Origin: Christensenellaceae bacterium
Lineage (GTDB): Bacteria > Bacillota > Clostridia > Christensenellales > CAG-138
DNA length: 64,000 bases
Assembly (NCBI GenBank): GCA_963675855.1
Contig: OY776633.1
Location: 96,901 to 160,900 of the forward strand
Direction of reading: 5' to 3'
Shown piece after piece: positions 6,373 through 64,000 of this stretch. How positions within the stretch are numbered: position 1 is the stretch's first letter; the number at the start of each line of letters is the position of its first letter. The notes beneath the pieces were generated by a model. The model was not told where the DNA came from, did no database searches, and was given only the letters and a program-made list of their open reading frames with translations. A program made the position numbers and the translations under genes.

Positions 6373-6413
6373 TTTTTTTAAAATTCCGCACATCGCCAAA
6401 CTATTCCAACAAA

Positions 6414-6444: not shown

Positions 6445-6455
6445 ATTTGAAACGA

Positions 6456-35311: not shown

Positions 35312-35324
35312 ATAAAGACAATCA

Positions 35325-38671: not shown

Positions 38672-38685
38672 CAAACGGGAGACAC

Positions 38686-38712
38686 AAAAAGAGGGCGCAT
38701 ATGCGCCCTCTT
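38686..38712. terminator. Terminator hairpin between thrS and the DUF2806 gene
   Basis: AAAAAGAGGGCGC-ATAT-GCGCCCTCTT between convergent genes. Confidence 0.75.
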
Positions 38713-38726
38713 AAACGATAAATGTA

Positions 38727-39704: not shown

Positions 39705-39773
39705 ACAGAATCCCCCATTTGACAATACTAATTATCATTGTATCAACTGTGTAATAAGTTGCAAGGGTGATTA

Positions 39774-47837: not shown

Positions 47838-49049
47838 TTACATCCCGCCTTTTGTGCGGCTGATATTGTTCAGCAGCTGCAGCACTCGCGCAGCCTGCGC
47901 TTTGTTCGATTTGTTTTTTAGCACGAACGCTTTCGCCGCAAGGCCTTTTTCATGCAGGGTTTCGCGTGGAAGCGCGAGCGTTTCTTCAAGCGTTTTTGCC
48001 ATTCCCCCGACCGACTCGTCCAAAATGAGGTAAGCATAATCGTCGTATTCGCGCGGCATACCGGAGAGCTTCGTGGTGAGCACGGGCGTGCCGGACGCCA
48101 TGTATTCGAGGTTTTTCGAAGGAAACGAGTAGGCGGTGAACGCCTCTTCAGACGGGCGGGGGTTGACGAGCAGCGTCGCGCGCAGCTCCTCCTCCACTAC
48201 GGCGGCGTTGTCCGCCACGCCGCGGCATTCGATCCTCATATCCCGCGCGGCCAGTTCGCGGAGTTCCTCCGCCGCGTCGCCTTCGCCGTAGAACACCAGC
48301 CGCGCATTTGCATCCTTTACCTGAAGGAACGCGCGCGCCAGCGTTGTTACGCCGTACCTTGCATGCAGCATGCCGGCATAGAGGCAAACCCTTTCGGGAT
48401 GTTTGTCCTCCAGCCGGTTGTTCCGCGAAGCCATCGCCGCGTCCACCTGCCCTTCGGCTACGATGTACGGCCTGCAATGCGGATTGACCCGCGCGTCCAT
48501 TGCCTCGGTGAGCAGCACATACCCGTCGTAGCGCGCGAGCCGGCGCGCGTTGAAATCCGCGACGCGGGTTTGACCGAAGAGGACGTGCGGCACGTCGGTC
48601 ACGATAGCGACGCAGGGGCGGCGCGTCAGCCGCGTCGCTGCGCGCACGCCGGTGCTCAGCGCAATGTTCAGCCCGTCGCAGACGGCATAGCCGCCGCGCC
48701 AAAGAAAGCGCAGCGCGGCAAAAAACGCGCCGCCGGCCACAAAGAGGTGCTTTACAAACGGCAGTCTGAGAACCGGCAGGTACCGGTAGGACACGCCGTC
48801 GCGCTCCTCGCGCGGCAGGCGGACGAAGACCCGCCTGCTGGTGAGCCGCGAGACCGGCGGTGCGGTGAGCGCGATAACCTCCGCGCCGTTTTGAATCAGC
48901 CCCCGCGCCATGAGCGCGTGATACTTCTGCGCGGCGAGGCTCGGTTTTGTCGCCGCGCTAGAAAACAGCGCGGAGTACGTCTCCGCGCTCACGAGCGTCG
49001 ATGCGTATAGCACGCGCGCGCGCGCGTCTTTATCGCTTTCTATGGGCAT
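47838..49049 (-). CDS. GT4 glycosyltransferase
   Basis: IVTD.P, LLT..M, EG, YAG.L...YG, LVNPR......YSFPSK.LEYMASG.PV. Confidence 0.87.
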   Translation of the reverse strand: MPIESDKDARARVLYASTLVSAETYSALFSSAATKPSLAAQKYHALMARGLIQNGAEVIALTAPPVSRLTSRRVFVRLPREERDGVSYRYLPVLRLPFVKHLFVAGGAFFAALRFLWRGGYAVCDGLNIALSTGVRAATRLTRRPCVAIVTDVPHVLFGQTRVADFNARRLARYDGYVLLTEAMDARVNPHCRPYIVAEGQVDAAMASRNNRLEDKHPERVCLYAGMLHARYGVTTLARAFLQVKDANARLVFYGEGDAAEELRELAARDMRIECRGVADNAAVVEEELRATLLVNPRPSEEAFTAYSFPSKNLEYMASGTPVLTTKLSGMPREYDDYAYLILDESVGGMAKTLEETLALPRETLHEKGLAAKAFVLKNKSNKAQAARVLQLLNNISRTKGGM

Positions 49050-50176
49050 TTTTTCCTTCCCCAGGTCGTCTGCATGACGATATCCGTATAGCTTTCGATG
49101 ATCTTGACGACCTTGGCGCTCACGTTTTCATCCATATAGTCTTCGGGCATGGCGGTCGGCTCGCGGTTTTCCGCCATGCCGATGGAAAGCTCCATCGCCT
49201 GCGTGATACTCTTTCCCGTAACGCCGCCGATCACGATCGTGCCCGCGTCCAGCGCCTCCGGCCGCTCGGTGGAGGTGCGGATCAGCACGGCGGGAAAGCC
49301 GAGCATGGCGCTTTCTTCGGAGAGCGTGCCGCTGTCCGAGAGCACGCAGTAAGCGGAGAGCTGCAGTCGGTTGTAGTCGAAAAAGCCGAACGGCTCGAGC
49401 GAGCGCACGTTCGGGTGGAACGCAAAGCCGCGCGCTTCGATGAACTTACGGCTGCGCGGGTGCGTAGAGTAGATCACCGGCATATCGTAGGCTTCGGCAA
49501 CGCCGTTTACCGCGCTCATAAGCGAGAGGAACGCGTCCTCGTCGTCTATGTTTTCCTCGCGGTGCGCCGAGAGCAGGATGTATTTTTTTTCGGTCAGGTT
49601 GAGACGCGACAAGACGTCGCTTTTGATGATCTTTTCCCTGTGTTTTTCGAGCACCTCGCGCATGGGCGACCCGGTAACGAAGATAAACTTGCCGTCGAAG
49701 CCCTCCGAAAGCAGGTAACGGCGGGAGTTCTCCGTATACGGCAGGTTCACGTCGCTGATGCGATCCACGATCACGCGGTTGACCATCTCCGGTACGTTCC
49801 AGTCCCAGCAGCGATTGCCCGCCTCCATGTGGAAGATCGGTATCTTGAGCCGTTTTGCGGCAATGGCCGCGAGTGCCGAGTTCGTATCCCCGAGCACTAA
49901 AAGCGCGTCCGGCCGTTCGCTTTTTAAAACATCATAGCTCTTTGCGATGATATTCCCCATCGTCTCGCCGAGATCCCTGCCGACGCAGCCGAGGTAGTGA
50001 TCCGGCGCGCGCAGTCCAAGCTCGTCGAAAAAGACCTGGTTCAGCTTCTCGTCATAGTTCTGGCCGGTATGTACGAGTACGTGGTCGAAATAGCGGTCCG
50101 CGCACGGGATCACCGCCGAGAGGCGGATGATCTCCGGCCGCGTACCGAGTATGGTCATGAGTCTGAGCTTGTTCAT
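49040..50176 (-). CDS. UDP-sugar 2-epimerase (FnlC/Cap5G/WbjD type)
   Basis: GTRPEIIRLS, HTGQNYD, GDTNS, HMEAGNRC, HREEN, SDSGT..EE, TERPE; follows the fnlA- and fnlB-like genes. Confidence 0.9.
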   Translation of the reverse strand: MNKLRLMTILGTRPEIIRLSAVIPCADRYFDHVLVHTGQNYDEKLNQVFFDELGLRAPDHYLGCVGRDLGETMGNIIAKSYDVLKSERPDALLVLGDTNSALAAIAAKRLKIPIFHMEAGNRCWDWNVPEMVNRVIVDRISDVNLPYTENSRRYLLSEGFDGKFIFVTGSPMREVLEKHREKIIKSDVLSRLNLTEKKYILLSAHREENIDDEDAFLSLMSAVNGVAEAYDMPVIYSTHPRSRKFIEARGFAFHPNVRSLEPFGFFDYNRLQLSAYCVLSDSGTLSEESAMLGFPAVLIRTSTERPEALDAGTIVIGGVTGKSITQAMELSIGMAENREPTAMPEDYMDENVSAKVVKIIESYTDIVMQTTWGRKKCP

Positions 50177-51294
50177 CACGCTCTTTCCACCTCCGAAGCG
50201 ATGGTGTCCGGATGTTCGGCATCGAAGCACTCGCTCGCCCACATCAGCGTCACCATGTCGGTCTTTCCGGTATTTTCGATGCTGTGCGTGTAGCCGACCG
50301 GTATGTCGACCACCGCGAGCTGCTTACCGCTGACGGGATACTCGATCACGTCGTCCATATCGATCCTGCGGAATTTGATGACGCCCGAACCGGATACCAC
50401 GAGAAATTTCTCCGCCTTGGTGTGATGCCAGTGGTCGCCCTTGACGACGCCGGGCCGGCTGACGTTGACGGATACCTGCCCGCCCCCGGCGGATCGTAAA
50501 AACTCCGTAAAGCTGCCGCGCTCGTCCTCGTGCGTCTCCAGCGGATACGAAAATTCCATCACTGGCAAAAAGCTCAGATAGGTGGCGTAGAGCTTGCGCG
50601 TGAGCGGGTCGCTCATGTCCGGCAGAACGTTCGTTTCGCGGATTTCCCGAAACGAGCGGATGCGGTTGGCCACGTCTCCGAGCTTTGCCGTATGGACGAT
50701 GGGAACGACGCAGTGCGGCCCTTCCATGGTGGCCTTGTCGTCGATCAGGTCGCACAGCGCCTCCGCCACGTCGTCCACATAGGCGAGGCTGAGTACGGCG
50801 GACTCGTTGTTTACCGCGATGGGCAGATCGTGCGAAACATTGTAGCAGAACGTCGCCACCGCGCTGTTGTAGTTGGGTTTGGACCACTTGCCGAACACGT
50901 TGGGGAATCGAAAGACGTATACTTTCGCGCCGGTTTCGCGCGCGTAATGGTCGAGTAGCTCCTCCGCGGCTTTCTTGCTGCGGCCGTAGAGGTTCGGCAG
51001 CGCCGCCTGCGTGGAGGATGCGTACATGACGGGGCAGCGGTTTTTATGCCGGATCATCATACGAAGCAGGGTGTCGGTAAAACCGAAATTGCCCTGCATG
51101 AACTCCTCCTGCTGTTTGGGGCGGTTGACCCCAGCGAGGTGGAATACAAAGCCGCACTCGGCGCAGTAACGTTCCAGAAACTCCATGGGCGTGTCCGCGT
51201 CGAATTTCAGCAGATCGTGATAGCCGCGCGCGCGCAGCGCGACGATCAGGTTTCTGCCGATGAACCCCCCGGCGCCCGTGATCAGTATCTTCAT
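50176..51294 (-). CDS. FnlB/Cap5F/WbjC-type SDR reductase with a C-terminal cupin domain
   Basis: TGAGGFIG, HLAGVNRP, YG.SK, NVFGKW..PNYNS, DERGSF.E, HWHH.K.EKF.V, PVGYTH. Confidence 0.9.
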   Translation of the reverse strand: MKILITGAGGFIGRNLIVALRARGYHDLLKFDADTPMEFLERYCAECGFVFHLAGVNRPKQQEEFMQGNFGFTDTLLRMMIRHKNRCPVMYASSTQAALPNLYGRSKKAAEELLDHYARETGAKVYVFRFPNVFGKWSKPNYNSAVATFCYNVSHDLPIAVNNESAVLSLAYVDDVAEALCDLIDDKATMEGPHCVVPIVHTAKLGDVANRIRSFREIRETNVLPDMSDPLTRKLYATYLSFLPVMEFSYPLETHEDERGSFTEFLRSAGGGQVSVNVSRPGVVKGDHWHHTKAEKFLVVSGSGVIKFRRIDMDDVIEYPVSGKQLAVVDIPVGYTHSIENTGKTDMVTLMWASECFDAEHPDTIASEVERA

Positions 51295-51364
51295 ACGCAC
51301 CAATCCCCGTTTCCGCGTCCCGTTCTGATGTGCCTGTCCGTTTCCGCGTACAATCCGTGTATTG

Positions 51365-52396
51365 TTAGCGCTGCTGTCCGCCGTTCAATTCATTTTGAAT
51401 ATAGGAAAGCGCCAGCAGCCGCTCCTTCACCTCTTCGATTGTCAGCAGGTCGGTGTTGTTGGAGTTGAATTCCGTCAGGGTTTTTTTCTCCCTGTAGCCT
51501 CGCTCGAAATACTGTTCGTAGTTCAGGTCCCGCGCGTCGGCGGGAACGCGATAATACTTGCCGAGATCTTCCGCGCGGGCGCATTCCTCATTCGTTAAGA
51601 GCGTTTCGTACATCTTCTCGCCGTGGCGGATGCCGATGATGCGCACGGGGTTTTCCGCGCCGAAGATCTGTTTGACCGCTTCCGCAAGCACGGCGATTGT
51701 GCACGCCGGCGCTTTCTGCACCATGATATCGCCCGTGCTTCCGTTTTCAAAAGTATACGCGACGAGTTCCACCGCCTCCTCGAGGCTCATGATAAAGCGC
51801 GTCATGTCCGGGTGTGTCAGCGTCAGCGGCAATCCGGATTTGATCTGCTCTACGAAAAGCGGGATCACGCTTCCGCGCGAGCACATGACGTTGCCGTAGC
51901 GCGTGCAGCAGATCGTCGTTTGTTCCGGTGAAACCGTGCGCGAACGCGCGACGGCGACCTTCTCCATCATGGCCTTGCTCGTGCCCATGGCGTTGACGGG
52001 GTATGCGGCCTTGTCCGTGGACAGACAGATGACGCGCCGCACGCCCTCCTCTATGGCGGCTTCGAGCACGTTGTCCGTGCCAAGGACGTTTGTCTTGACC
52101 GCCTCGACCGGAAAAAATTCGCAGGACGGTACCTGCTTGAGCGCCGCCGCGTGAAATACGTAGTCTACGTTATAGATCGCGCCTTTGAGGCTGCCAGTAT
52201 CGCGTACGTCGCCGAGGAAAAAGCGGATCTTGTCGCTCTGATAGCGGCGGCGCATATCGTCCTGCTTCTTCTCGTCCCGCGAGAAGATGCGGATCTCCTT
52301 CACGCCGGAGTGGAGAAACCGCTCCAGTACGGCGTTGCCGAAGCTCCCCGTTCCGCCTGTAATCAGCAGCGTTTTTCCGTCAAACACACCCTTCAC
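51365..52396 (-). CDS. UDP-GlcNAc 4,6-dehydratase/epimerase (FnlA/Cap5E/WbjB type)
   Basis: TGGTGSFG, FSRDEKKQDDMR, HAAALKQVPSCEF, STDKA.YP.NAMG.SKA, RYGNV..SRGSV, RHGEK.YE. Confidence 0.92.
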   Translation of the reverse strand: MKGVFDGKTLLITGGTGSFGNAVLERFLHSGVKEIRIFSRDEKKQDDMRRRYQSDKIRFFLGDVRDTGSLKGAIYNVDYVFHAAALKQVPSCEFFPVEAVKTNVLGTDNVLEAAIEEGVRRVICLSTDKAAYPVNAMGTSKAMMEKVAVARSRTVSPEQTTICCTRYGNVMCSRGSVIPLFVEQIKSGLPLTLTHPDMTRFIMSLEEAVELVAYTFENGSTGDIMVQKAPACTIAVLAEAVKQIFGAENPVRIIGIRHGEKMYETLLTNEECARAEDLGKYYRVPADARDLNYEQYFERGYREKKTLTEFNSNNTDLLTIEEVKERLLALSYIQNELNGGQQR

Positions 52397-52407
52397 CCCG
52401 TTTCAGC

Positions 52408-54234
52408 TTATCGCAGCCAGTCATAATACGCCCGCGTCGCCTGCGCGCGCGAAACGTGGCCGCAGGCATAGCTCCTTGCGCGCGCGCCGAGTTCTTCAAG
52501 CGGCACGGTGCTCGCGTGCAGACGCAGTATCGCGTCCGCCATCTCCCGCGGTTCGCCGGGCGCTACGCATACGCCGTAACCCTCGCGCTCGATGGAGCGC
52601 GCCCACTCGCTGCCCGCGTCCACGCAGGCGATGACCGGCCTGCCCGCGGCGAGCGCGGACCAGGTTTTGCTCGGCATGGCGAAGCGCGTCGTGCCTTTTT
52701 TCAGCGGTACGAGCGCGGCGTTTCCCAGAGAATACACCTCCGCCACGCGTTCCGAGGCATACAGCGGGAAGAGCAGCACGTTTTCGATCCGCTCGTGTTC
52801 GATGCGGTTCTTTACGTGCTCTGAAAGCTCGCCTCCTCCGAATATGACGATGCGGATATCCTCCTGCTCCAGCAGAAGTTTCGCCGCGTCGAGAATCACA
52901 TCCGGCTCCTGCAGAACACCGAGCGTTCCGGCATAAACGGCGTAGAAGCGGTCTCTGGGCAGATTCAGTTCGTCGAACAGCGTGTTTTTCTCGCGCGAAA
53001 CGGGCTGAATGCTCTCGGTGTCCGCCCAGTTCGGGATCACGGCAACCTTCCGCTCATCAATCCCGCGGGCGACCAACGTACGTTTCATGTCCTCCGAAAG
53101 CGTAACGAACGCTGAATTTTTACGATAGACGCGCTGTTCCATGCGCCGGGACAGCCGCACGACGGGATGCCATTCGGTGAATTTGCCCATGGCGACCATG
53201 CTGTCGGGAAAAATGTCCTGCAGGATATAGACCGTCCGTGCGCGGCGGCTTAATTTCGCGCCGACCAGGCCGAGAAACGGCGGCATGCTGCCGAGCAGGT
53301 ACACGTCCGCCTTGATCCTCTTCGCCTCGCGGCTGAGCGCGCGCGTGTTGTTCAGAAAATGCAGCGCGCGCTGGAAGAAGCTCTTCCCCTCGCGCTTTTT
53401 TGTGCCGACGCGCAGGACGCGGTAGCCCTCCGGCGTTGTTTCGTCCGTTCGTTCGAGGTATGTGTCCCTGACTTCTTCGCTCAACCCGCGGTTGGGCATA
53501 TTGGTGATGACGCTGACGCGTGCGCCGTAGCGGCACAAATCCTCCGCCAAATCGGCATAGAGGTGCGTAATGGGCGTGATCTCCGGCGCGAAATACGTCG
53601 TCACCAGCGCAACGTGCAGCCGTTCTTCCGTATCCGCCGCCCCCTCTCGCACGCCGCGGCGCTTCAGCACGCTTCCGATCGTGCCGAAAAAGCAGCGGCA
53701 GTCCATGATAAATCCGAATCGTTCGACATACTCTCCGTCATAGGCGGCTTTAACCGGAACCGGCAATTCGTCCCGCCCGTTGATCTGCGCCCATCCGGTC
53801 AGCCCGGGGCGCAGGTGGTTGGGCGTCAGGCCGCGTTTCGATATGTGCCTGTCACGCTCGGCAATCAGGTCGAACTGGTTCCAGAGCGCGGGACGTGGGC
53901 CGACGATCGACATATCCCCCGTAATGATGTTCCAAAGCTGCGGCAGCTCGTCGAGGCTGGTTCTGCGCAGGAAACGGCCGACGCGGGTGATGCATGCGCC
54001 GGAATTCTTTAAAAGATGCGTCGGCACGTCGCACGGGGTATCCGCGCGCATGGTGCGGAATTTGAGAATTGAAAAATGCGTCTTGTCTTTTCCAACGCGC
54101 TTCTGGCGAAAGAGCACCGGTCCGCGCGATTCCAGTTTGACCGCGGCGGCAAGAACAAGCAGCAGGGGGGAAAGCGCAACGCCGCCGATCAGGGAAACGA
54201 TGACGTCCAGCCATCGCTTGATGCGAAAATACAT
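52408..54234 (-). CDS. Priming phosphoglycosyl transferase fused to a WbuB-like GT4 glycosyltransferase
   Basis: N-part: KR..D, GPV.F.Q.R.G, KFRTM, LR.TSLDELPQL, GDMS.VGPRP, PGLTGWAQ.NGR. C-part: YF.PE, PNR, S.PP, QD.FP, IPNW, YAG..G..Q, PSK....LAAG.P. One frame; ATG behind AGAAGGAAG. Confidence 0.87.
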   Translation of the reverse strand: MYFRIKRWLDVIVSLIGGVALSPLLLVLAAAVKLESRGPVLFRQKRVGKDKTHFSILKFRTMRADTPCDVPTHLLKNSGACITRVGRFLRRTSLDELPQLWNIITGDMSIVGPRPALWNQFDLIAERDRHISKRGLTPNHLRPGLTGWAQINGRDELPVPVKAAYDGEYVERFGFIMDCRCFFGTIGSVLKRRGVREGAADTEERLHVALVTTYFAPEITPITHLYADLAEDLCRYGARVSVITNMPNRGLSEEVRDTYLERTDETTPEGYRVLRVGTKKREGKSFFQRALHFLNNTRALSREAKRIKADVYLLGSMPPFLGLVGAKLSRRARTVYILQDIFPDSMVAMGKFTEWHPVVRLSRRMEQRVYRKNSAFVTLSEDMKRTLVARGIDERKVAVIPNWADTESIQPVSREKNTLFDELNLPRDRFYAVYAGTLGVLQEPDVILDAAKLLLEQEDIRIVIFGGGELSEHVKNRIEHERIENVLLFPLYASERVAEVYSLGNAALVPLKKGTTRFAMPSKTWSALAAGRPVIACVDAGSEWARSIEREGYGVCVAPGEPREMADAILRLHASTVPLEELGARARSYACGHVSRAQATRAYYDWLR

Positions 54235-54382
54235 GTTCTTCCTTCTGCGGCGGGATGTTTTTCCCATCGCCAGCTGGATCAATCCGCGGGTTTTTAGCGT
54301 TAATTTGCCGGCAAATCGCCGTCGTTTTCCGGGATTTTGCCTGCACAAACCAAACGGGCCTGTTCCCCCGCTTATAGCGAAA

Positions 54383-54411
54383 ATTTTACCATGCAAGTCA
54401 GTGGGTGTCAA
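54383..54411 (-). promoter_or_regulatory. sigmaA promoter of the glycan operon
   Basis: TTGACA-17 nt-TAAAAT on the minus strand, giving a leader of about 140 nt. Confidence 0.8.
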
Positions 54412-54444
54412 TCGAGCGCAAGGCGCGCGCCGCTGCGGCAAACG

Positions 54445-54473
54445 AAACGGAGGAAGCGCTTCCTCCGTTTTTT
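54445..54473 (-). terminator. Terminator after the BTAD regulator
   Basis: AAACGGAGGAA-GCGC-TTCCTCCGTTT inverted repeat. Confidence 0.7.
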
Positions 54474-54497: not shown

Positions 54498-55745
54498 TCA
54501 CTCCCCGTCCTTGCATTCGTAAACGCGTTTTTGCGTGTTTACGTCGTATTTATTGATGCAAAGCGGGCGGAGCTTGTAGGTGAGCACCACGCTCGATTTG
54601 ACGTATTCGTTGTAAAACGCCTTTTTGATGCGGTCCATGACGAGCCGCCCCGTCTCGTATGTGACGGAAGGCAGCAGCACGACATACTGCATGACGCTGT
54701 ATCGCGATATGGTGTCCCCGCGCCGCAGGTTGGTCTGCGCGACGTGCAGCAGCTGCTTCATGATGTTGTCGAGCACGAGGTTGTCGAAGCGCTGCTCGTA
54801 GGTGTTGCTGATGGTCAAAAGCGCTAAAAACATCGTGCCGTTGTAGCGTTCGAGCATGCGCCGCTGGAGCTGGTAGATCTCCTTGAAAATCTCGTACTCG
54901 CAGATGAACGCGCCGTAGCTTTCGGTGTTCTCCTCGAGCATATTCTGCACTTTTTCGATGTCCGCTTCCATCTCCTGGTCGGCCTGTACGATGAGCTTGT
55001 ACACCGCGCGGATCTCGCCGGAAGGCTGGATGCCGAGCTGTTTATAGTGCAGGTCGGTCGCGAAATAATACTGCGAGAGCGCCTCGCGCTTCTTACCCGT
55101 CTTGACCAGCGCCATCATGAGTTCGAGGTGCAGACGTTCGTCGAACATGTCCACGTCCATCGCCTTGCGGCAGACCTGCACGATAACGTCGTATTCCTCT
55201 TCCTCTTTTAACAGATCGAGCAGGATAAACACGCTTTCTAGAAACAGGTCGTGGTAATACACGCTCTTGGGAACGACCCACATCTCTTCTGCGGAGTTGG
55301 TCAAAAGCGGCCCCGTATAGATCTGCAGCATCTGAAGGTAGCGTTCGATGCTTTCGCGCTTGCTCATGCCGGGCGTGCGCGCCTCCTGGCAGAGCCGCTC
55401 AAACTCGAACACGTCGATCTCGCAGTCGAGGTTCGGATTCCACTGATACGCGCCGCGCGCGGTGAGGACGGACTCCGACAGTTCCGGCAGGCCGCTTTGA
55501 TCCACCAGCGAGCGGTAGCGGTGCAGCAGTGTTCGAAGCGCCGTCGCGGGGTTTCTGTTATCCTTGTCCGACCAGAGCATTTCGAGAAGCTCCTCGTGCG
55601 GAACAGCCCTGTCCTTTTTCAGGATCAGATATTCAAGAAATTGGCTCGTCTTCTTTGCCTGGCGCAATTGCGTGAGCGCAACGTTTCCGTTGACCACGAT
55701 TTCAAAAGTGCCAAACATTCTGATTTTAATCTTCGCGTTGGACAT
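54498..55745 (-). CDS. SARP-type regulator: winged HTH, BTAD and a degenerate GGDEF-like domain
   Basis: I.MFG.F, L.YL, L.EMLW......P..AL...L.R.R, Y.WN, D..EFE, Y.G.LL, D..DE..H..LM, A...Y, LG..PS. C-terminal LRRGD.ISRYSVMQYVVLLP in place of RxxDxxxRxGGDEF. Confidence 0.85.
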   Translation of the reverse strand: MSNAKIKIRMFGTFEIVVNGNVALTQLRQAKKTSQFLEYLILKKDRAVPHEELLEMLWSDKDNRNPATALRTLLHRYRSLVDQSGLPELSESVLTARGAYQWNPNLDCEIDVFEFERLCQEARTPGMSKRESIERYLQMLQIYTGPLLTNSAEEMWVVPKSVYYHDLFLESVFILLDLLKEEEEYDVIVQVCRKAMDVDMFDERLHLELMMALVKTGKKREALSQYYFATDLHYKQLGIQPSGEIRAVYKLIVQADQEMEADIEKVQNMLEENTESYGAFICEYEIFKEIYQLQRRMLERYNGTMFLALLTISNTYEQRFDNLVLDNIMKQLLHVAQTNLRRGDTISRYSVMQYVVLLPSVTYETGRLVMDRIKKAFYNEYVKSSVVLTYKLRPLCINKYDVNTQKRVYECKDGE

Positions 55746-55790
55746 GCCGTCTCCTCCTTGTCGGTTCGGGTGTATGCGAAACTGTTCCGC

Positions 55791-56855
55791 TCAACCCTCG
55801 GTCAATTTCTTTCTCATCTGGTCGGGATTTGCCGCAAAGAGCAGTGCGGTCTCCTTTGAGACGCGCCCGTCTGCGTACAAACGGAGGATATCTCCGTCCA
55901 TCGTGCGCATACCCTCCCGCGCGCCGGCGTAGATGACGTTGTCCATCTGGTGCGCCTTGCCGTCGCGGATCATATTTTGAATCGCGCTGTTAACCAGCAT
56001 GATCTCAAACGCGGGTTCGAGCCCGCCGTCCGCAGTCGGCAGCAGCTGCTGGCTGACCACGGCGCGCAGCACCATCGACAGCTGCACGCGTATCTGCTGC
56101 TGCTGGTTGGCGGGAAATACGTCTATGATGCGGTCTATCGTCTTCGCCGCGCCGATGGTGTGCAGCGTGCTGAGCACGAGCTGCCCCGTTTCGGCGGCGG
56201 TCAGCGCGGTCTGTATCGTCTCGAAATCGCGCATTTCGCCGAGCAGTATCACATCCGGCGCCTGCCTTAATGCCGCGCGCAGGGCGGTCTGGTAACTGCG
56301 TGTATCGTGGTCCAATTCGCGCTGGCTGAGCACGCTCTGCTTATGCGCGTGGATAAACTCGATCGGATCCTCGATCGTAACGATGTGCCCGCGCCGGTTG
56401 GCATTGATGCGGTCGATCACGCACGCGAGCGTGGTCGATTTTCCGCTCGCCGCGGGGCCGGTAACGAGCACGAGCCCTTTTTTGATGTCCGCAAGACGAA
56501 GTATCTCGTCCGGTATGTGCATGGCATGCGGGTCCGGAAGCGCGAGCGAAACGATGCGCAGCACCATCGCAAGCGAGTTGCGCTGCTGGTACGCGTTGCA
56601 CCTGAATCGCCCGACGCCGCTGATGGAAAACGAAAAATCGTCGTCGCCTTCTTCCAAAAGACAGTCCATCTCCCGGTGGTCCATGTCGTAAACCTGCTTG
56701 ATAAGCCGCTTCGTGTCGTCCGGCCGCAGCACCGTATCAAGGAGCGGCCGCACCTCGCCGGAAACCTTCAGGCGCACGCAGGAACCGGGTATGATGAACA
56801 CATCCGATCCGCCTTTTTCGATTGCCGCCTGCAGGATATCCTGTATTTCCGTCAT
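55791..56855 (-). CDS. pilT: PilT/PilU family type IV pilus ATPase
   Basis: SD..I, GR.R.N, GPAASGKST, TIEDPIE, LRQ.PDVIL.GE.RD, TG.LV.STLH, AIQNMIRD (AIRNLIRE-like); no PilB N-terminal domain. Confidence 0.92.
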   Translation of the reverse strand: MTEIQDILQAAIEKGGSDVFIIPGSCVRLKVSGEVRPLLDTVLRPDDTKRLIKQVYDMDHREMDCLLEEGDDDFSFSISGVGRFRCNAYQQRNSLAMVLRIVSLALPDPHAMHIPDEILRLADIKKGLVLVTGPAASGKSTTLACVIDRINANRRGHIVTIEDPIEFIHAHKQSVLSQRELDHDTRSYQTALRAALRQAPDVILLGEMRDFETIQTALTAAETGQLVLSTLHTIGAAKTIDRIIDVFPANQQQQIRVQLSMVLRAVVSQQLLPTADGGLEPAFEIMLVNSAIQNMIRDGKAHQMDNVIYAGAREGMRTMDGDILRLYADGRVSKETALLFAANPDQMRKKLTEG

Positions 56856-56859
56856 AGGT

Positions 56860-57276
56860 TCAATCCCCCTGCCAGAGCGTCCCGGCGCTCTGACCGACCC
56901 ACTCCGACGCGTTTTCATAGCGATATTTGAGAATAACGCAGCTTCCGCCGGACAAATCGACCGTTACGCCCAGCGTATGCCCGTCGAACGAACCCACCGA
57001 AAACGCATAGGTCCCGTCCGCTTGCCGCGTCACGCCCTCTATACTCTCCGGCTTTTCGCCCGCCGCCAGCGCGTCGTCCAGCGCGGCGATGAGCCGCTGC
57101 GCACGCGCGTCCGCGTCATAATACGCGTCGGTGCTGACTGCGGTCTTGTCAGTGAGCGCCGCGTCCGAGCGCGCCTGCAACAGTGCGAGCGAGGCAAACA
57201 GCGTCAGGCTCACAACCACGAGAATGAGCAGTATGCTCGACGCGCCGACGCCCATGCGGGAAGGAACCTGTTTCAT
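56860..57276 (-). CDS. Pilin-like small protein (PilX/GspK-like N-terminus)
   Basis: Short basic leader, G|ASSILLILVVVSL hydrophobic helix, small soluble domain; ATGA coupling to the upstream gene. Confidence 0.6.
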   Translation of the reverse strand: MKQVPSRMGVGASSILLILVVVSLTLFASLALLQARSDAALTDKTAVSTDAYYDADARAQRLIAALDDALAAGEKPESIEGVTRQADGTYAFSVGSFDGHTLGVTVDLSGGSCVILKYRYENASEWVGQSAGTLWQGD

Positions 57277-57695
57277 GGGCCCACCTCCGCATCCGGAATA
57301 TACCGCGCGGCGTCCAGCCAATAGATCTCGCCGCCGGGCGAAGCGACGCTGAGTTCAATGTCGTACAGCGTGCCCTGCAGCGGAGAATCGTCCGGCGTGA
57401 CGATACAATCCACCGTCAGATCGGAAGCGGTCTCCATCGAAAAAGCATATACGCCGCATTCGTTGCAGTCGCCTTCACCGGCGGGGTTCGCCTTGATTCG
57501 CTCGGCCGCACTTTCCATGGCGATGATCGCACGCGCATGGTAGGCGCTCTCCTGAGCGGTTACGCTTGCGGCCGCAATCAGCCGGACGATCACGCTCGCC
57601 GAGAGCGCGAAGAAAAGAATGACGAAGATCAGCTCGATGAGCACCGGGCTGAATACGCTGCGTTTTTTCACCGAGCGAAGCGTGGTTTGCGTCAT
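57273..57695 (-). CDS. Pilin-like small protein
   Basis: KKRS..SPVLIELIFVILFF resembles the (G|F)TLIEL class III signal but lacks the Gly; long helix follows. Confidence 0.62.
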   Translation of the reverse strand: MTQTTLRSVKKRSVFSPVLIELIFVILFFALSASVIVRLIAAASVTAQESAYHARAIIAMESAAERIKANPAGEGDCNECGVYAFSMETASDLTVDCIVTPDDSPLQGTLYDIELSVASPGGEIYWLDAARYIPDAEVGP

Positions 57696-58195
57696 GCGCC
57701 GCCCTCCTTCGCCGCCTGCAGGCAGAGCGCGGCGCTGTGCGCCTCTCCGCCTTCGTCTACCAATTCTATGGAAAGTAGGCCGCCTTCCAGCGTCAGGCGC
57801 ATCGCGTTAGCCGAAAAGATGCCTTCACCGTAATCCGGCGAAAACGCGGCGTCCGCCGCTGCGAAATATTCGCAAACCTGCGTCCCGTCGCAGTAGATAT
57901 AAGTGTTGTACCGTTCGCCGCCGTATATGCCGCCGAGTACGAGCACGTCCGTGCCGTCTTCGCCGCGCACGATCGAAAGCATGTCCGCTTCGTCCGCGCC
58001 GCGCACTTTGCCGATCAGATAGCTCAACCCCGTGCGGGAGACGTATGCGTGCTCCGCCGTGTCGTTGATCATGCGGTAAGAGCGCGCGCCGGCGATAACG
58101 ATGACGAGCGAAAGCAGCGCAAACGCCGCAAGCAGCGCGAAAATGAAAGCCCCGCGCATTTCGCCGCGTCCGCGGACGCCCGATCCGGCGCTCAC
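57692..58195 (-). CDS. DUF4860-like, pilin-like membrane protein
   Basis: RG|AFIFALL TM helix; RT.LSY...KVR..D, Y.TYIY...G...EY and G..I pattern recalled for DUF4860. Confidence 0.65.
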   Translation of the reverse strand: MSAGSGVRGRGEMRGAFIFALLAAFALLSLVIVIAGARSYRMINDTAEHAYVSRTGLSYLIGKVRGADEADMLSIVRGEDGTDVLVLGGIYGGERYNTYIYCDGTQVCEYFAAADAAFSPDYGEGIFSANAMRLTLEGGLLSIELVDEGGEAHSAALCLQAAKEGGA

Positions 58196-58521
58196 GAGCC
58201 GCCTCCGATCCGCACCACGCGCACGCCCGGCATGACGTTTGCCGCGATGACGTCATAGAAAACGATATAACGGCTCGCGTCGACGCGGACGCCGTAGTTG
58301 TCGTAGATGTATTCGAGGTTCGGCGGATACTTGCCCTCCACGGCGTAGCAGGTGACGACGGCGCGCTGCAGCGCGGAATCGACCATCTCCTCTTCCCGCG
58401 CGTCGTTTCGGCGGGCCGCGACGGCAAGCGAAATGAGAAAGAAGACGGCAATCAGCGCAAACACGACGATTGCGAAAACCAGCCCTTTATGCCGCCCGCG
58501 CGCACGCTCGTACAGGTGCAT
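58192..58521 (-). CDS. Pilin-like small protein
   Basis: RHKG|LVFAIVVF TM helix, then RA.V.CYA.EG.YP..L.Y....YG; RBS AAAGGAGG. Confidence 0.65.
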   Translation of the reverse strand: MHLYERARGRHKGLVFAIVVFALIAVFFLISLAVAARRNDAREEEMVDSALQRAVVTCYAVEGKYPPNLEYIYDNYGVRVDASRYIVFYDVIAANVMPGVRVVRIGGGS

Positions 58522-58567
58522 GCCGAATCCTCCTTTCCCAGTGTAGCAATTTCAACCAATTCGCGGT

Positions 58568-59623
58568 TCAGCCGACCGCGGACAGCACCGACAGCAGCGG
58601 CAGCATGACCGAAAGCAGTATGCCGCCGATGACGATGGAGAGCACCGCAACCAGCGTCGGTTCGATCATGGCGATGACGTTGTGGATTGCGTCGTCCGCC
58701 TCTTCCATATAGACGCCGCTGAGTTTTTCCATCACGGCGTCGAGCTTGCCCGCCGCCGCACCGAAGCGGATCATCTTCTCGTGCATGGGGTCAAACAGGC
58801 CGCTTTTTTCCGCGGCGTCCGCAAACCCGGCTCCGCCGAGCAGTTCGCCGGCGGCAAGGTCGGCCCGCAGCCTGTGTTTTTTATCCGTAACCACCGACGG
58901 CGCAAGCCGTATCGCGTCCTCGACGGGATAGCCCGCCGCGAGCATCATGGACAGCGCCGAGGCATACCGCGCCGTGGACAGCCGCGCGTTGACGCGGCGA
59001 ACGGACGGAACGAGTTTTGCAAGCAGCGCAAGCACAGAACCGCGCCGTTTCGTGCGCAGCAGCACACCCGCAACAATCAGCAGCACCGCGAATACGCCGA
59101 CAAATACGAGCATGAACTTACCGAACCCCACGCCGAACTGCATCGCCGCCGAGGCGGGGCTGCCCGCCGCGAGGCCGAGGCTGTCGAACACGCGCCGGAA
59201 CACCGGCATCACGCTGATGACGAGGATAGCGATGACCACCGCGAGCATCATGACCAGCACGCTCGGGTAGAGGATCGCGTTTTTAACGGACGTTTTGATC
59301 TGCGCTTCCCACTGATAGTAATTCGCCAGCGAAGCCATGACTTCGTCGAGCTTGCCCGCGCGCTCGCCGATGCGCACCATGGCGAGCATATAGTCCGGAA
59401 AGATGCCAGCATCCTCCAGCGCGGCGGACAGTTCGCCCCGGCGGTTCACCGCCGCGCGTATCTGATCGAAGCGCGCGCCGTAGCGGCTGCCCTCGTAACT
59501 TCGCGCGAGCGTCTCCATGCCGTCGCCCAGTGGGATACCCGCTTTGAGCACCATGGCAACCTGCTCGCAGAAAAGCGCGGTTTCATCCGGCGGAAGCGTT
59601 TTTTGCGTCTGTTGATCCTGCAT
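58568..59623 (-). CDS. Type II secretion F / PilC family inner-membrane platform protein
   Basis: F..Q....L.AGIP, M...GE..G.LD, YP, second repeat L..ML.AG, G...G.LD, IEP; three TM segments. Confidence 0.9.
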   Translation of the reverse strand: MQDQQTQKTLPPDETALFCEQVAMVLKAGIPLGDGMETLARSYEGSRYGARFDQIRAAVNRRGELSAALEDAGIFPDYMLAMVRIGERAGKLDEVMASLANYYQWEAQIKTSVKNAILYPSVLVMMLAVVIAILVISVMPVFRRVFDSLGLAAGSPASAAMQFGVGFGKFMLVFVGVFAVLLIVAGVLLRTKRRGSVLALLAKLVPSVRRVNARLSTARYASALSMMLAAGYPVEDAIRLAPSVVTDKKHRLRADLAAGELLGGAGFADAAEKSGLFDPMHEKMIRFGAAAGKLDAVMEKLSGVYMEEADDAIHNVIAMIEPTLVAVLSIVIGGILLSVMLPLLSVLSAVG

Positions 59624-59687
59624 TCCGGTTCCCTTTCCTAATAATTATGCCTGCCGCGCGGCAATATCGCGCCAGCGTGTTTCTCCG

Positions 59688-60596
59688 TCAATAGATACGC
59701 TCTACGATATAATCGCTCTCACGGTGTCCGGATTTATCGAGCGTCGCGTCCATCCATACCCACTCTCCGTCGAGATAGACGCTGTTCCAGGCATGATAGA
59801 GGTTTTCCGGCGTTACGGTGCCGATGAGCATCTTGGCCGGAATCCCCTCGGATCGGAGCATCACGGCCAGCAGCGCCGCGTAATCGAAGCAGATGCCCGT
59901 TCCGGTTTCCAGCGATTCGTCCGCGTCCGGCAGATATCCGCCTGGCACCGTCGCGGCCTTTTCCGTATCGTACGTCATGTGTTTCACGACGAATCGGTAA
60001 AACGCCCTGGCAATCTTCTCTTCGTCCGTCATGCCGTCCGAAAGCTCCCTCGCCCGGCCGACGGCCCGCGTTTCCTCATCATACCACACATACTGGTTGG
60101 GATACAGGTACGGCACGGTTTCGTCCGCAAGAAGCACGTCGATTTGCACGCCGTAGCGGACGGCATAAAGGTCGTTTTCCACCTGCTCCATCACGCGGAC
60201 GGTATACGCGCCGTCCCCCATCTGCAGGGGAAAGACGCTGTAATCGTCTCCGGCGGGCAGGTCGTAATAATAGGTCTGTTCCGCTGTCGAGATGCGCGCC
60301 TTGAGCCGCTTGCCGGTTTCGCTGCATCGCACCATGACGTACCCCTGGTCGGTATGCGACGCGTCAATCGTAACGCCTTCGCCTTCAAAAACGACGGTTC
60401 CGGACGCTTCCGGCAGCAAAAGAGGCTTTTCGGCGGTCTGCCCTTCCCCTTCGGCCTGCGCGGCGTTCCGCGCGGTTTCCGTCGTACCCAACAGCGCCAG
60501 GGAACCGCCCTTGCAGGCCGTCAGGAGCAGGAAGCCGAAAAAAAGCAGCCACGTAAACCCTTTTTGCAGCCGTCCGGCTACCGACCCTTTTTTCAT
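59688..60596 (-). CDS. Transglutaminase-like lipoprotein
   Basis: Lipobox LLLTA|C; Cys-His-Asp triad GICFDYA, YHAWN, WMDAT; start placed at ATG 60596. Confidence 0.87.
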   Translation of the reverse strand: MKKGSVAGRLQKGFTWLLFFGFLLLTACKGGSLALLGTTETARNAAQAEGEGQTAEKPLLLPEASGTVVFEGEGVTIDASHTDQGYVMVRCSETGKRLKARISTAEQTYYYDLPAGDDYSVFPLQMGDGAYTVRVMEQVENDLYAVRYGVQIDVLLADETVPYLYPNQYVWYDEETRAVGRARELSDGMTDEEKIARAFYRFVVKHMTYDTEKAATVPGGYLPDADESLETGTGICFDYAALLAVMLRSEGIPAKMLIGTVTPENLYHAWNSVYLDGEWVWMDATLDKSGHRESDYIVERIY

Positions 60597-60809
60597 ATCC
60601 AGATTATACTGCGAAAAATCACACGAATGCAACAAATTGTTACTTAGCTACTATCAGGTCTCGCCGAAAAACTCTTTGTTTTAGGCGATCTTTTGTTACA
60701 TAACGGTGATCTCTCCGGCCGCTTCACGCGATTGTTACAGATCGCGTAATGTATGCAACACAACCGAAGTCATCCGTTCCGCCCCGCGTAACGCGGATGA
60801 TCGCGGCGT

Positions 60810-60847
60810 AAAAAACCCGGCGCCCTCATGAAAAGGGCGCCGGGCTT
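60810..60847 (-). terminator. Terminator after the surface protein gene
   Basis: Minus strand AAGCCCGGCGCCCT-TTTCATG-AGGGCGCCGGG followed by TTTTTT. Confidence 0.85.
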
Positions 60848-60875: not shown

Positions 60876-63800
60876 TTATACGCCTTTGAGAATGTCGTAT
60901 GTCCACGGTTTTTCCTGTTTCCGGTTCTTATCCTTGCTCCTGCTCTTTGTGGTTCCAATGACGACCAGCAGGAACTGGACGAACGCGATGGCGGCCATAT
61001 AGATCGTCCACCGGTCGGTGAGCGTCATTGGATTGTTCATATTCTCCGTGAGCAGGAACGCGACGACTCCGCCGACAGCGGGCAGGAGCGTCAGAATCCG
61101 CGCGATGAGCTGCCTCTTCTGTGTTTCCGGCGTTACGACGCCATCTTCCACGTCCTTTTTCCTTCCGATCAGGCCAAAGAACACCCAGAGCGACGCCAGC
61201 GCAGTCGCCGCCGCAAGGATCAGGTTTACGATCGCCCACGCCGAGCCTCCGAACAGAGGCGTCCTCTCAGCTGCTATTATTTCCGGCTCTTCTTCGATGT
61301 CCGCAACCACCTTCGACATCGTGCCGTAGATCACGAGATCCCCGTCCGGTATCGTCAGCGGAATATCCGTCGTCCAGCCTTCGAAGACAAAACCTTCCAG
61401 CGCGGGATCGGTCGGAACCGGCAGCGCATCGCCGTACGAAAGGCCGGTATACGTAATGTACGTTTCGTTCCCGTCAAATTCACCCGTTCCGCCGGAGACG
61501 ATAAACGTCACCGTAAAGAGCTCCTTTTCCCACTGCGCGTAGAAGTTAAGCTGCCGCGGAGGCATCGTGACAACGTCGCCGGGCTGCCTGGTAACGTCCG
61601 TCGCCGCGACCGTTTCGCTCCATCCGGTAAAGCGGTAACCGGTTCTCGTAAACGTGTTTTCCGCAACCGTTACGTCCGCGTCGGTCGGGTAGCGTCCCTC
61701 CTCAAACATAACGCCCTCCGCGCCGTTGGGATGGTAGTTGACGGGCGAAACCGTCGCTTCCCAGACGGCGGTGAGCGTGACGTCGTTGTCCGGCATCGTG
61801 AAGGTATCGCCCGGATCAAACGTCCTCGCCGTCCCGCCGATATCCGTCGTGCTCCAGTGCAGGAAACTGTAACCGGAATTGTACGGAACAACGCCGGAGA
61901 TCGTAATCAGCGCGCCGGAGAGAATGTTCGTCCGGGCTGCGGGTAGGTAGAGCACGGCGGCGTCCGTGCCCGCGTCGTAGTCCACGTCGTAGGTCTCGTC
62001 GTAAACCTCGCGCGTCCAAACGGCGTTGAGTGTATAGTTGCTGCCGATCGACGGAATCGTTCCGCCGAGCGCGACCGGGTGCCCGTCGCCGCGTCGCGCC
62101 AGCCGGTCAGTTCATAACCGGCCCGAACGACGCCGTAGCCGTCGGCAACGACCGCGTTGGTTCCATAACCGAACCATTCGGTCTGCGGGAATCCCGTCAC
62201 GGCGGCCACGGTATTGGTGTTGTAGATCACGCGCGGGTTGATCGTAAAGTCCGCCGCGGCCGTCAAGAACGTATAGTTGCTCAAAACATCCGGCGCCGCC
62301 GCGACGCCCGGCGCCAGCACTCCTGGGTAAATCCCCACGTAGTTGTCGGTGTTTGTGCGGAGCACGGATACCGTAACACTTCCAAGGTCGCCGGCCAGCA
62401 CGGCGTAGTACGTCGTGCCGTTCACCGTTCCAGTCTTGTAGGTATACCCGAACGCCGGATCGGCCGTGCTGTAGTTTTTCTCTGCGTTCAGCGCGGATAC
62501 GAGCACCGCGCGCTTTGTCACCGTCAGCGTGCCGGGCGTAATCGAAACGCTGTAATCTTCGCTTCGCGTCGCTAAGCTGAAGGTATAGTCAAAGCCGTTC
62601 TCAACGGAGCCGGCGTTTGTGATCGTGCCCGTCGTGTTCGTCGCGGCGAACCCTTCGCCGCCGGCAAAGCCGTCGCTCGCCGCCCCGAACCCCCAGCCGC
62701 TCTGCGTCAGCGGAGTCCCGTCGTAAACCCTGTTCGCATCAAACGTACTGACCAGAATCGCACGCGGCGCAATCGTGATCGAAGCCGAGCCGAACGCGGG
62801 CGCGTAGTTGCCGTTGATCGCTACGAAATAGACCGTTTTACTCTCGCTCACGTGCGTCGCCGTCGGGCTGGCCGTCAGCGTGTAGTCGGCCGGGTTCGCG
62901 CTGTAGTCCGCGCTGTAATAGATCTGCGTACCGGCGGAGACGTTCGCCGAAGCCGTTACGCCGTGCGCGAGGCCGTCGTATTTGCCGCTGTAATCGGCGG
63001 CGTTCACCGTCAGCGTATCCGCCGCCGTAACCGTCAACGTGCCTTTTGTGATTTCGAACGCATAGTTCGCCGGATCGGTCGAAGCGTTGAGCGTGTAGGC
63101 AAAGCCGTTTTCAATGGAGCCGACGTTCGTGATCGTTCCGTCAGCGGCGGCGCTGGTAAATCCCTCGCCGTCGGCAAACCCGTCGTTGCCCGCTGCGTCG
63201 TAGCTCCAGTCCGGATTCGTCAGCGCGGTGCCGTCGTAAGGTTTGCTGTCGCTCACCGTCGTCAGCGCAATGGTTCTTTTATCGATTTTTATGACTTCGC
63301 TGCCGAACACCGGGTTGTAATTCGGGTTCGTTACCACGAAGTACACCGTCGTGCCGGGTGTGAAATCCGTTTCCGCCGGGCTTTCCGTCAGCGTATAGTC
63401 CGCCGGATCGCCGCTGTATGTCAGGCTGTAGCGCACCATCGAACCGCCTTGCGCGGGGGTCACCGTGATCGCGTGCGGATAGCCGTCGTAGATACCCGCA
63501 TACCCTTGTGAATCCGCCGTCGTATTCGCGGGCAGGATCGTCAGCGTGCCTTTGACGGTTGAAACGTCATATTGATACGTAACGTCCTCCGCGCCGCTCA
63601 AAATCGTAAAATCGGGCCCGATGGAAACGCTCGTGGGATACGCGCCGGCGTATGTTCCGCCGCCGTATACCGTGTAGCCGCTCACCGTGACGGCCGGGTC
63701 GGACACCGTTCCCGTCGTAATGGTATGCAGGCTGCCGTCGTAAGGGTAACTTGCGCTGTCGGCCGTGATGACGAGCGGTTTGTTCTGGGCGTACAGCGCA

Positions 63801-64000
63801 TAGATCGTCGTGTTTTCGGTCAGATCCTCCGCTGAAGCGGGGTTGTACGCGCCAAGCCAATAGTAGTTGACGCCGTTATAAGATACGTTCTGCGGCGGCG
63901 TGACAGAATACGTCGCGTCGCCCGTGCCGTATGCCACCCACTCGGTGCCGAGCAGTTCGCCGCTTGCATCCGCGCGGTACATTACCCGCGGGTTCACCGT
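60876..64000 (-). CDS. Large repeat-rich surface protein (YDG/MBG-like and InlB B-repeat-like units, 3-TM C-terminal anchor); 5' end outside the window; one frameshift near 62078
   Basis: Repeated YDG...GTLTVT units and Y..N......R.GY.F.GW....L.A.W units. ORFs 61907-63997 and 60876-61985 join into one coherent protein if one base is added at the GGG at 62077-62079. Confidence 0.85.

Follow-up and report, generated by a model that had tools for sequence, protein, structure and literature searches.

A widespread Clostridial gene cassette related to type IVa pili with a PilT-family protein as its only ATPase

We analyzed a 64,000-nucleotide stretch of a Christensenellaceae genome (hereafter the window; contig OY776633.1, positions 96,901–160,900), in which a compact gene unit had been predicted to encode a minimal type IV filament system. 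The unit lies at 54498–60635 on the minus strand and consists of the eight closely packed, co-oriented open reading frames (ORFs) that the original prediction had listed. In 5′ to 3′ order these encode a transglutaminase-like lipoprotein, a PilC/GspF platform protein, four small proteins (s1–s4), a PilT-family ATPase, and a BTAD/SARP regulator. The three junctions from s1 to s4 are GTGA, ATGA, and ATGA overlaps, in agreement with the predicted (A/G)TGA pattern, and the starts outside these junctions are preceded by Shine-Dalgarno-like sequences. The N-terminal strings quoted for the four small proteins (KG/LVF, RG/AFI, SPVLIEL, and G/ASS) were all present in the translations. Pfam and NCBIfam profiles found no PilB, canonical pilin, or prepilin peptidase among the unit’s ORFs, and no PilM/N/O, for which models were not run against the whole genome. 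The s2 protein belongs to the DUF4860 family (PF16152), which served as the marker for related loci.

DUF4860 was found in 38/400 sampled Clostridia genomes and 20/219 genera. Neighborhood conservation around it was strong: in 19/19 wide loci from other families, the platform, s1, and PilT-type ATPase genes lay around DUF4860 in the same order, and most of the remaining small genes were detected as well. One family had the ATPase first, ahead of the platform, and at one locus (L071) it lay ~32 kb from the rest. We refer to this recurring set as the cassette. A degenerate DNA pattern for the s1 motif found at least 120 further loci in Oscillospiraceae, Lachnospiraceae, Ruminococcus, Butyrivibrio, Faecalicatena, Flavonifractor, Mogibacterium, and others (taxa as labelled). 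Among the matches listed (120 loci, below the listed loci), s1 was present in 117, s2 and the platform in 112 each, s3 in 104, and s4 in 96. PilT directly followed s4 in 60/79 listed loci with room for it. A transglutaminase-like gene directly preceded the platform on the same strand in 53/72 listed loci with room, and 7 more listed loci had one elsewhere in the stretch. None of the 120 listed loci contained a PilB-like ORF. Three loci of a single family (L063, L064, and L072) had a conserved extra gene after the cassette PilT, with a product of 246–562 amino acids beginning MAYICE. These comparisons show the locus to be one copy of a widespread Clostridial cassette that, judging by the homologies described below, derives from a type IVa pilus gene set. 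The only parts it has kept are a PilC platform in shortened form, a PilT-clade ATPase dedicated to it, a set of diverged minor pilins, and the family-specific bitopic s1, usually with a surface transglutaminase-like Cys-His-Asp lipoprotein and often with a SARP-type regulator.

The unit’s sole ATPase (55791–56855, minus strand) is a PilT-family hexameric ATPase that profile scores and phylogeny place in the PilT clade. Its ORF extends over 55791–56918, with ATG 56855 as the likely start. It scored 412.6 bits against the PilT/PilU model TIGR01420, above the cut-off of 319.1. Scores were below cut-off for ComGA (NF041000, 128.5 vs 300 bits), PilB (111 vs 676), GspE (125.3 vs 630.25), and the TadA family (41.6 vs 373.15). 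Against solved structures, Aquifex PilT gave 330.7 bits and GspE/PilB at most 93.2 bits. Walker A, Walker B, the His box, and what we take to be the AIRNLIRE-type motif were all kept in the cassette ATPases. We built a maximum-likelihood tree from 54 ATPases of these loci and rooted it on TadA; it split PilB from the PilT radiation with 99% Shimodaira–Hasegawa-like approximate likelihood ratio test (SH-aLRT) support. Fifteen cassette ATPases formed one clade (96–97% SH-aLRT) inside the PilT radiation, together with one displaced copy from a genome whose cassette had no adjacent ATPase. Three other cassette ATPases, from lineages that encode the ATPase first, formed a second PilT clade. The predicted PilT-type identity of the sole ATPase was therefore borne out by the model score, the tree, and the match to a solved PilT. 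A frameshifted copy, L022, was left out of the tree. In this copy (5620–6671, from genome G033 of the same order) the coding sequence of the cassette PilT is divided between two frames, whose tblastn pieces meet near residue 225, which could reflect a frameshift or a sequencing error.

The platform protein (58568–59623, minus strand) is a short PilC/GspF-type protein of 351 amino acids with two T2SSF domains (149 bits). Its best model was GspF at 188.7 bits, and it scored 122.6 bits against the ComGB model NF041012 (cut-off 240), covering model positions 3–330 of 332; all of its system-specific model scores were below their cut-offs. The platforms of 20 cassettes were 328–390 amino acids long with a median near 350, whereas 12 canonical PilC proteins from the same genomes had 400–420, so that the cassette platforms are shorter by ~50–60 N-terminal residues. 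A role in PilB binding has been attributed to the N-terminal cytoplasmic domain of PilC. Provided that this role is right, the truncation would fit a loss of PilB.

Three of the four small proteins (s1, s3, and s4 of the window) matched no Pfam or NCBIfam family. The best-conserved small protein of the cassette is s1 (58192–58521, minus strand), predicted to be bitopic with a basic tail, one membrane helix, and an ectodomain carrying a conserved C[YF]xx[ED]Gx[YF]P motif. Its family, which was large and unnamed and is now defined, comprises 1332 representatives of 50%-identity clusters at E ≤0.001, and 1058 at ≤1e-10. We examined 148 of the 150 representatives listed. The motif was present in 138/148, and a GFTLIE-type prepilin N-terminus in 0/148. 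Homologues were labelled ‘hypothetical protein’ in their sources, apart from one labelled PulG by JGI. In hhalign comparisons s1 aligned with canonical major pilins at 82% (17 sequences) and 66% (128 sequences), across the leader, the helix, and a Y..G.YP stretch. Helix-anchored controls for the s1 profile gave 1.6% for PilO and 0.2% for PilN, and s1 was rejected as an equivalent of either; it was likewise rejected as a match to the first minor pilin of a canonical locus (1.2%). The GspG model did not match s1. A stored s1 homologue in Atlas fell in unnamed clusters, with GspG as the nearest named cluster at a score of 0.77, which we treat as a lead only. When the s1 and s2 profiles were compared with solved structures nothing was significant, the best being TcpA (E 1.9) in pilin register. 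Pilin ancestry of s1 is thus only weakly indicated.

The other three small proteins are, by profile and alignment evidence, homologous to pilins. The s2 protein (57692–58195, minus strand) appears to be a diverged type IVa minor pilin that has lost the Gly of the cleavage site. It scored 67.1 bits against PF16152 (cut-off 25), and its profile aligned over 143 columns, nearly full length, with a 147-amino-acid canonical minor pilin encoded before PilX_N (95.8%, E 7.7e-9). This makes DUF4860 assignable to type IVa minor pilins. A 242-amino-acid minor pilin was rejected as a counterpart (5.5%). The G-xxxx-E signal was present in 4/112 s2 proteins from the listed loci, and most had an acidic residue at the start of the helix instead. 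The s3 protein (57273–57695, minus strand) is a small pilin of ComGE/GspI-like type that has retained Glu5 and carries Ser at position −1. An equivalent of Glu5 was found in 16/16 aligned members and 99/104 from the listed loci. Position −1 varied among the same 104 (Gly 26, Ser 23, Pro 12, Asn 9, Arg 7, and others). Of the 16 members, 7 matched ComGE, 6 the GFxxxE motif, 5 ComGF, and 5 GspI, with the ComGE and ComGF matches below cut-off. Loss of Gly(−1) in s3 was not associated with gain of the transglutaminase-like gene (Gly with the gene 10, non-Gly with it 35, Gly without it 4, non-Gly without it 11), and that link was rejected. The s4 protein (56860–57276, minus strand) is of the PilX/GspK type, with Gly at −1 and no Glu5. 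The Gly before the hydrophobic stretch was kept in 15/15 aligned proteins and 92/96 from the listed loci, and position +5 was always hydrophobic and never acidic. In hhalign s4 matched the PilX_N protein of a canonical locus over 72 columns (83.8%, E 7.9e-6). Of the four atypical pilins originally predicted, then, s2, s3, and s4 stand as pilin homologues, and s1 is better described as a bitopic protein whose examined relatives never have a prepilin N-terminus.

The unit opens with a transglutaminase-like lipoprotein (59688–60596, minus strand; 302 amino acids). Its ORF spans 59688–60635, and ATG 60596 is the likely start, giving a signal peptide and the lipobox LLTAC. The Transglut_core match (PF01841, 76 bits vs a cut-off of 23) places it in the transglutaminase-like cysteine protease superfamily. 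The Cys, His, and Asp columns of the triad were kept in 75/76, 76/76, and 75/76 cassette-linked homologues, respectively, as expected for the predicted Cys-His-Asp lipoprotein. The proposal that its substrate is the adjacent repeat protein did not hold up, and that protein was rejected as a conserved partner: the adjacency is kept within the genus (2/2 same-genus loci), and only 3/19 distant loci had repeat matches, weak and generic ones. The last gene of the unit (54498–55745, minus strand) encodes a member of the SARP/BTAD family, as judged from a BTAD domain at 66.5 bits (cut-off 22.1) and a Trans_reg_C winged helix at 24.7 bits, slightly short of the 26.2 cut-off. It is followed by a degenerate GGDEF-like domain with an RxxD motif, and the regulator also matched a DgcR model (E 8.5e-7). 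It is 94% identical within the genus, with a ratio of nonsynonymous to synonymous substitution rates (dN/dS) of 0.03–0.04. Eighteen aligned linked regulators shared the C-terminal GGDEF-like domain with a degenerate signature (SxxQ[YF]), and 18/18 had RxxD five residues upstream of it. The regulator may sense cyclic di-GMP (c-di-GMP) through this site.

The source genome is a single contig of 2.85 Mb and is 95.5% complete. Its only other T2SSE-family ATPase is TadA, encoded in a complete Tad locus ~1.9 Mb away with TadZ-like, RcpC, TadB, TadC, TadE, and TadG-like proteins and a 207-amino-acid A24 peptidase. This peptidase is the genome’s single A24 enzyme and lacks the A24 N-terminal domain. 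A genome search for pilB and pilD found neither PilB nor a long PilD-type peptidase, and the N_methyl prepilin motif had no match anywhere in the genome (best E 0.73). The same held for PilB across the genus, where its cut-off was reached in 0/31 genomes and the only matches were to the P-loop core of the cassette PilT at ~110 bits. DUF4860 was present in 23/24 same-genus genomes. Compared with two same-genus genomes, all eight genes had dN/dS values of 0.03–0.28, which are approximate because synonymous sites were near saturation. With all eight genes under purifying selection and no PilB in the genus, the cassette is therefore selected for without an extension ATPase. These values, along with conservation across Clostridial families, also mean that the cassette is not a chance assembly. 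Parts of Tad/Flp pili (TadA, TadB/C, Flp, TadE/F) lie in the distant Tad locus, and the cassette ATPase failed the TadA-family model, in keeping with the original prediction that the unit does not fit a Tad operon. The Tad locus itself (L009, G000:C1:2058000-2077000) adjoins phage-like packaging genes (portal, large terminase, and gp3-like) and may be next to a prophage or part of one.

In the 20 carrier genomes that were examined in full, a PilB-type ATPase occurred elsewhere in 14 and a long PilD-type peptidase in 15. The PilB-type ATPase was not found in the remaining 6/20. Five of these, including the source genome (the others are G097, G254, G423, and G303), had neither PilB nor a long PilD and were all 95–100% complete. 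The sixth, G424, is a fragmented assembly with partial matches at contig ends. The cassette thus does not always accompany a pilB locus; it is independent of PilB and persists under purifying selection in PilB-less genomes. In one same-order relative a textbook locus, PilB-PilT-PilC-PilA(x2)-PilD-three minor pilins-PilX_N-PilM-PilN-PilO, lies ~350 kb from the cassette, and the cassette is therefore a separate paralogous system and not a fragment of a canonical one.

That arrangement could also be taken to mean that the cassette is an accessory module, supplying a tip complex and a retraction motor to a filament built by type IVa pili or, in this genome, by Tad pili. The PilB-type ATPases and long PilD-type peptidases found elsewhere in most carriers, and the full canonical locus in the same-order relative, would suit such a role. 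TadA-like ATPases and short A24 peptidases are present in each of the five carriers that clearly lack PilB, and in G254 the cassette is 17 kb from a Tad ATPase. A platform of its own would, however, be superfluous in a module that serves another machine, and canonical loci already encode their own PilT and minor pilins, s2-like and s4-like ones included. Tad systems use Flp pilins and TadB/C platforms that are unrelated to the cassette set, and the selection on all eight genes in a genus where none of the 31 genomes has PilB also argues against dependence on type IVa pili. We consider the accessory role unlikely.

An A24 peptidase was present in 20/20 carriers examined in full, and in 34/36 class-sample genomes with DUF4860 above cut-off vs 254/400 overall, a co-occurrence that does not amount to a statistical test because the genomes are mutually related. 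This co-occurrence and the near-invariant Gly of s4 together suggest that processing in trans has been kept, and the cassette probably still requires a trans-acting peptidase. In this genome that role would have to fall to the Tad-locus A24 enzyme.

Set beside the type IVa pili of monoderm Clostridial loci, the cassette shares a PilT-family ATPase and a PilC-family platform, and its s2 and s4 are homologous to the minor pilin and PilX_N protein of the same-order relative’s locus. It differs in having no PilB, PilD, or canonical major pilin, and no PilM/N/O in the unit. Its platform is N-terminally shortened and the class III signals of s2 and s3 are eroded. It also adds the s1 family and the transglutaminase-like lipoprotein. 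These losses could suggest a type IVa pilus locus in decay, left without a function of its own, with the eroded prepilin motifs and the missing PilB, PilD, major pilin, and PilM/N/O as traces of decay. Such a remnant is at odds with the low dN/dS of all eight genes, intact and translationally coupled ORFs, gene order kept across many families, conserved ATPase motifs and transglutaminase triad, and an s1 family of more than a thousand cluster representatives. Decay is already largely refuted by these observations, and we give it almost negligible probability.

The likeness to the ComG system of Bacilli (ComGA, ComGB, ComGC–GG, and ComC) is closer in size and gene order than the original prediction allowed when it stated that the unit does not fit ComG. 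Both are compact operons without PilM/N/O that encode a single small ATPase, a single short platform, and a group of four or five small proteins resembling pilins. The cassette might accordingly be read as a ComG-like DNA-uptake pseudopilus of Clostridia, in which a PilT-clade ATPase has replaced ComGA. The platform has the size of ComGB and its match to that model runs from end to end, if below cut-off, some s3 members match ComGE (7/16) and ComGF (5/16), and one family has the order ATPase-platform-s1-s2-s3-s4, as from comGA to comGG. Com operons have been reported as confined to Bacilli in the portion of Imam 2011 covered here (PMC3244431). The source genome encodes ComEC and DprA. Both of these proteins are common in non-transformable bacteria, however, and no short ComEA was detected, because the genome’s only HHH_3 match is in a 740-amino-acid ORF. 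Unlike ComGA, the cassette ATPase sits in the PilT clade, fails the ComGA model, and is usually encoded last. There is no ComGC-type prepilin or dedicated ComC in the cassette, and a transglutaminase-like enzyme and a SARP regulator are attached; we know of no such lipoprotein or SARP/GGDEF-like regulator in competence regulons. Overall, we regard a competence pseudopilus as distinctly unlikely.

A third comparison is with the core of type II secretion systems. The platform scored best with the GspF model, s3 members match GspI, and canonical s2 members match GspH/J weakly, although all model scores stayed below their cut-offs. GspK lacks Glu5, as does s4. On this basis the cassette could be a type II secretion-like piston that pushes folded proteins through the thick Gram-positive wall, with the lipoprotein or neighboring surface proteins as cargo or helper. 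The parts resemble a GspG/H/I/J/K layout, and in the genus the cassette adjoins a surface repeat protein of at least 1734 amino acids. A pilin-dependent secretion role has been proposed for the second pilus gene set of Clostridium perfringens, in the portion of that preprint covered here (bioRxiv 10.1101/2024.11.04.621531). The cassette nevertheless has no GspE-type ATPase, no GspC/L/M, and no secretin, although no search aimed at a secretin was made, and its host is a monoderm, as inferred from taxonomy. No candidate cargo gene is conserved outside the genus, and the lipoprotein needs no special export because it has its own signal peptide and lipobox. We therefore rate a secretion piston as decidedly improbable.

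Having weighed these alternatives, we find that the best explanation overall, and a somewhat likely one, is a PilB-independent pseudopilus machine within the type IV filament superfamily. In such a machine the regulator would switch the operon on through upstream TGTAACAA sites, possibly sensing c-di-GMP via RxxD. The s2, s3, and s4 proteins would form a minor-pilin-type tip or short pseudopilus on the platform. Cleavage of s4, and of s3 wherever feasible, would fall to any A24 peptidase available in the genome, which in this case is the Tad-locus one. As sole motor, the PilT-clade hexamer would move this short filament, probably in both directions, and s1 would be either an uncleaved pilin-like base or the repeating subunit. 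Where the filament emerges, the lipoprotein would cleave or cross-link a wall or surface partner. The output would most likely be a surface function such as adhesion, aggregation, or wall passage, and not long pili.

The nearest precedent for an extension-promoting PilT, by analogy, is the Vibrio cholerae MSHA pilus. According to the portion of that report covered here, this pilus relies on its PilT motor both to extend and to retract (PMC9815625). The MSHA pilus keeps a dedicated extension ATPase, and none was found in this genome. Surveys of type IV filament systems report pilT as part of pil operons in Gram-positive bacteria and regard PilB as the ATPase essential for assembly (Imam 2011, PMC3244431; Denise 2019, PMC6668835; Pelicic 2019, PMC6916266). 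No PilT-only system is described in the portions of these three papers covered here, and the supplementary tables of the first two may include such loci. Literature searches found no published description of the cassette or of DUF4860, as the claim of an undescribed system had supposed.

Several observations weigh against a self-sufficient PilT-driven pseudopilus. To our knowledge, all characterised systems use PilT as the motor for retraction. A canonical type IVa locus with PilB, complete or nearly so, is present in 14/20 carriers, where the cassette could cooperate with it, and 19/79 listed loci with room had no PilT directly after s4. There is no canonical major subunit in the cassette and no N_methyl match in the genome. 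The link of s1 to pilins is weak and none of its examined relatives has a prepilin N-terminus, and most s2 and s3 proteins have no Gly at −1, which makes their departure from the membrane uncertain. Two carriers had no A24 match even at E ≤1 in assemblies that are 99% complete, in 130–160 contigs. As for c-di-GMP, the GGDEF-like domain of the regulator scored 17.2 bits, below the Pfam cut-off of 23.8, and the position of RxxD five residues before the signature is what we take to be the geometry of the diguanylate cyclase inhibitory site (I-site). On the question of the major subunit, s1 need not fill that role, because at locus L070 the platform and the s1-like gene have a canonical pilin between them. 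This locus (G061:C4:27500-44000) is a possible intermediate with the order PilB-PilT-PilC-canonical pilin-s1-like-DUF4860 and an intact GFSVVE signal; neither s3 nor s4 was detected there.

A bolder version of the pseudopilus reading would make the cassette a new family of filament machines. In this family the PilT-clade ATPase would be the sole, bidirectional motor, and the short filament would be built of largely uncleaved minor-pilin-derived subunits and s1. The enzyme would covalently tailor the filament or its exit through the wall, all under the control of a c-di-GMP-sensing SARP regulator. We hold this as a possible but doubtful proposal. If true, it would overturn the rule by which a PilB/GspE/ComGA-type ATPase and prepilin cleavage are both required for filament assembly; we know of no described bacterial type IV filament system without an assembly ATPase of the PilB/GspE/ComGA/TadA type. 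The cassette keeps PilT alone, under selection in a PilB-less genus, and occurs in about one in ten sampled Clostridial genomes. A selected PilT-only cassette this common makes PilT-clade filament assembly directly testable in natural systems. Carriers include the cultured gut and rumen genera Faecalicatena, Flavonifractor, and Butyrivibrio (as labelled), and a surface machine, possibly controlled by c-di-GMP, could matter in the gut microbiota for adhesion, aggregation, or wall passage. Although frequent among Clostridia of guts and digesters, the cassette has apparently not been the subject of any earlier study.

The upstream control elements of the operon lie between the lipoprotein gene and the upstream repeat-protein gene. 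A hairpin at the end of the latter (60816–60844, minus strand; 11-pair stem, 10 of them G-C) is followed by a T-run on the minus strand. It is conserved in two same-genus genomes and insulates the operon from the repeat-protein gene, marking the operon’s upstream boundary. A pattern search found four TGTAACAA-like sites at 60628–60739 (minus strand), three direct and one inverted, the latter overlapping the −35 region. With at most one mismatch there are 21 such sites in the whole window, 4 of them inside these 112 nucleotides, and they stand out as conserved islands in the otherwise diverged intergenic alignment of three same-genus genomes. The cluster is a candidate set of regulator binding sites, with the linked BTAD protein possibly as the binder. 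The predicted promoter at 60632–60603 (minus strand) has the sequence TTGCAT-18 nt-TATAAT and ends 6 nucleotides before ATG 60596. Two same-genus genomes (L025 and L026) share its TATAAT box and the distance from it to the ATG. A consensus scan passed over it because the first hexamer matches at only 3/6 positions. With the ATG 6 nucleotides after the −10 box and no ribosome-binding site between, the operon transcript may be leaderless at its first cistron. At the site of the predicted terminator, a 12-pair hairpin does lie 3′ of the regulator gene (54444–54471); the hairpin scan scored its T-run on the plus strand, and the tail on the operon strand is TTCGTTTG. Past this hairpin, 54411–54383 holds a promoter-like site for the next gene. 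Riboswitch control of the operon was rejected; the window’s only Rfam matches are at 14928 and 35318. These are a glycine riboswitch (60 bits, 14928–15013, minus strand) and a c-di-AMP riboswitch (97 bits, 35318–35459, plus strand), both unrelated to the operon.

The cassette is flanked by envelope-glycan genes on one side and surface-protein genes on the other. Downstream, 49040–54441 (minus strand) carries a surface-glycan set that includes a 677-amino-acid fusion of Bac_transf sugar transferase and GT4 glycosyltransferase domains, together with ORFs that by eye resemble epimerase/dehydratase enzymes. The upstream repeat protein (60876–64000, minus strand) has Flg_new/Listeria-Bacteroides repeats and C-terminal membrane helices. 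Its gene is split into two overlapping ORFs in different frames near 61907–61985, which could represent a frameshift, a pseudogene, or an assembly error; in a same-genus genome the repeat protein is one continuous ORF of at least 1734 amino acids. Elsewhere in the window, positions 38001–40000 have a G+C content of 0.44 compared with ~0.60 in the rest, and possibly represent foreign DNA.

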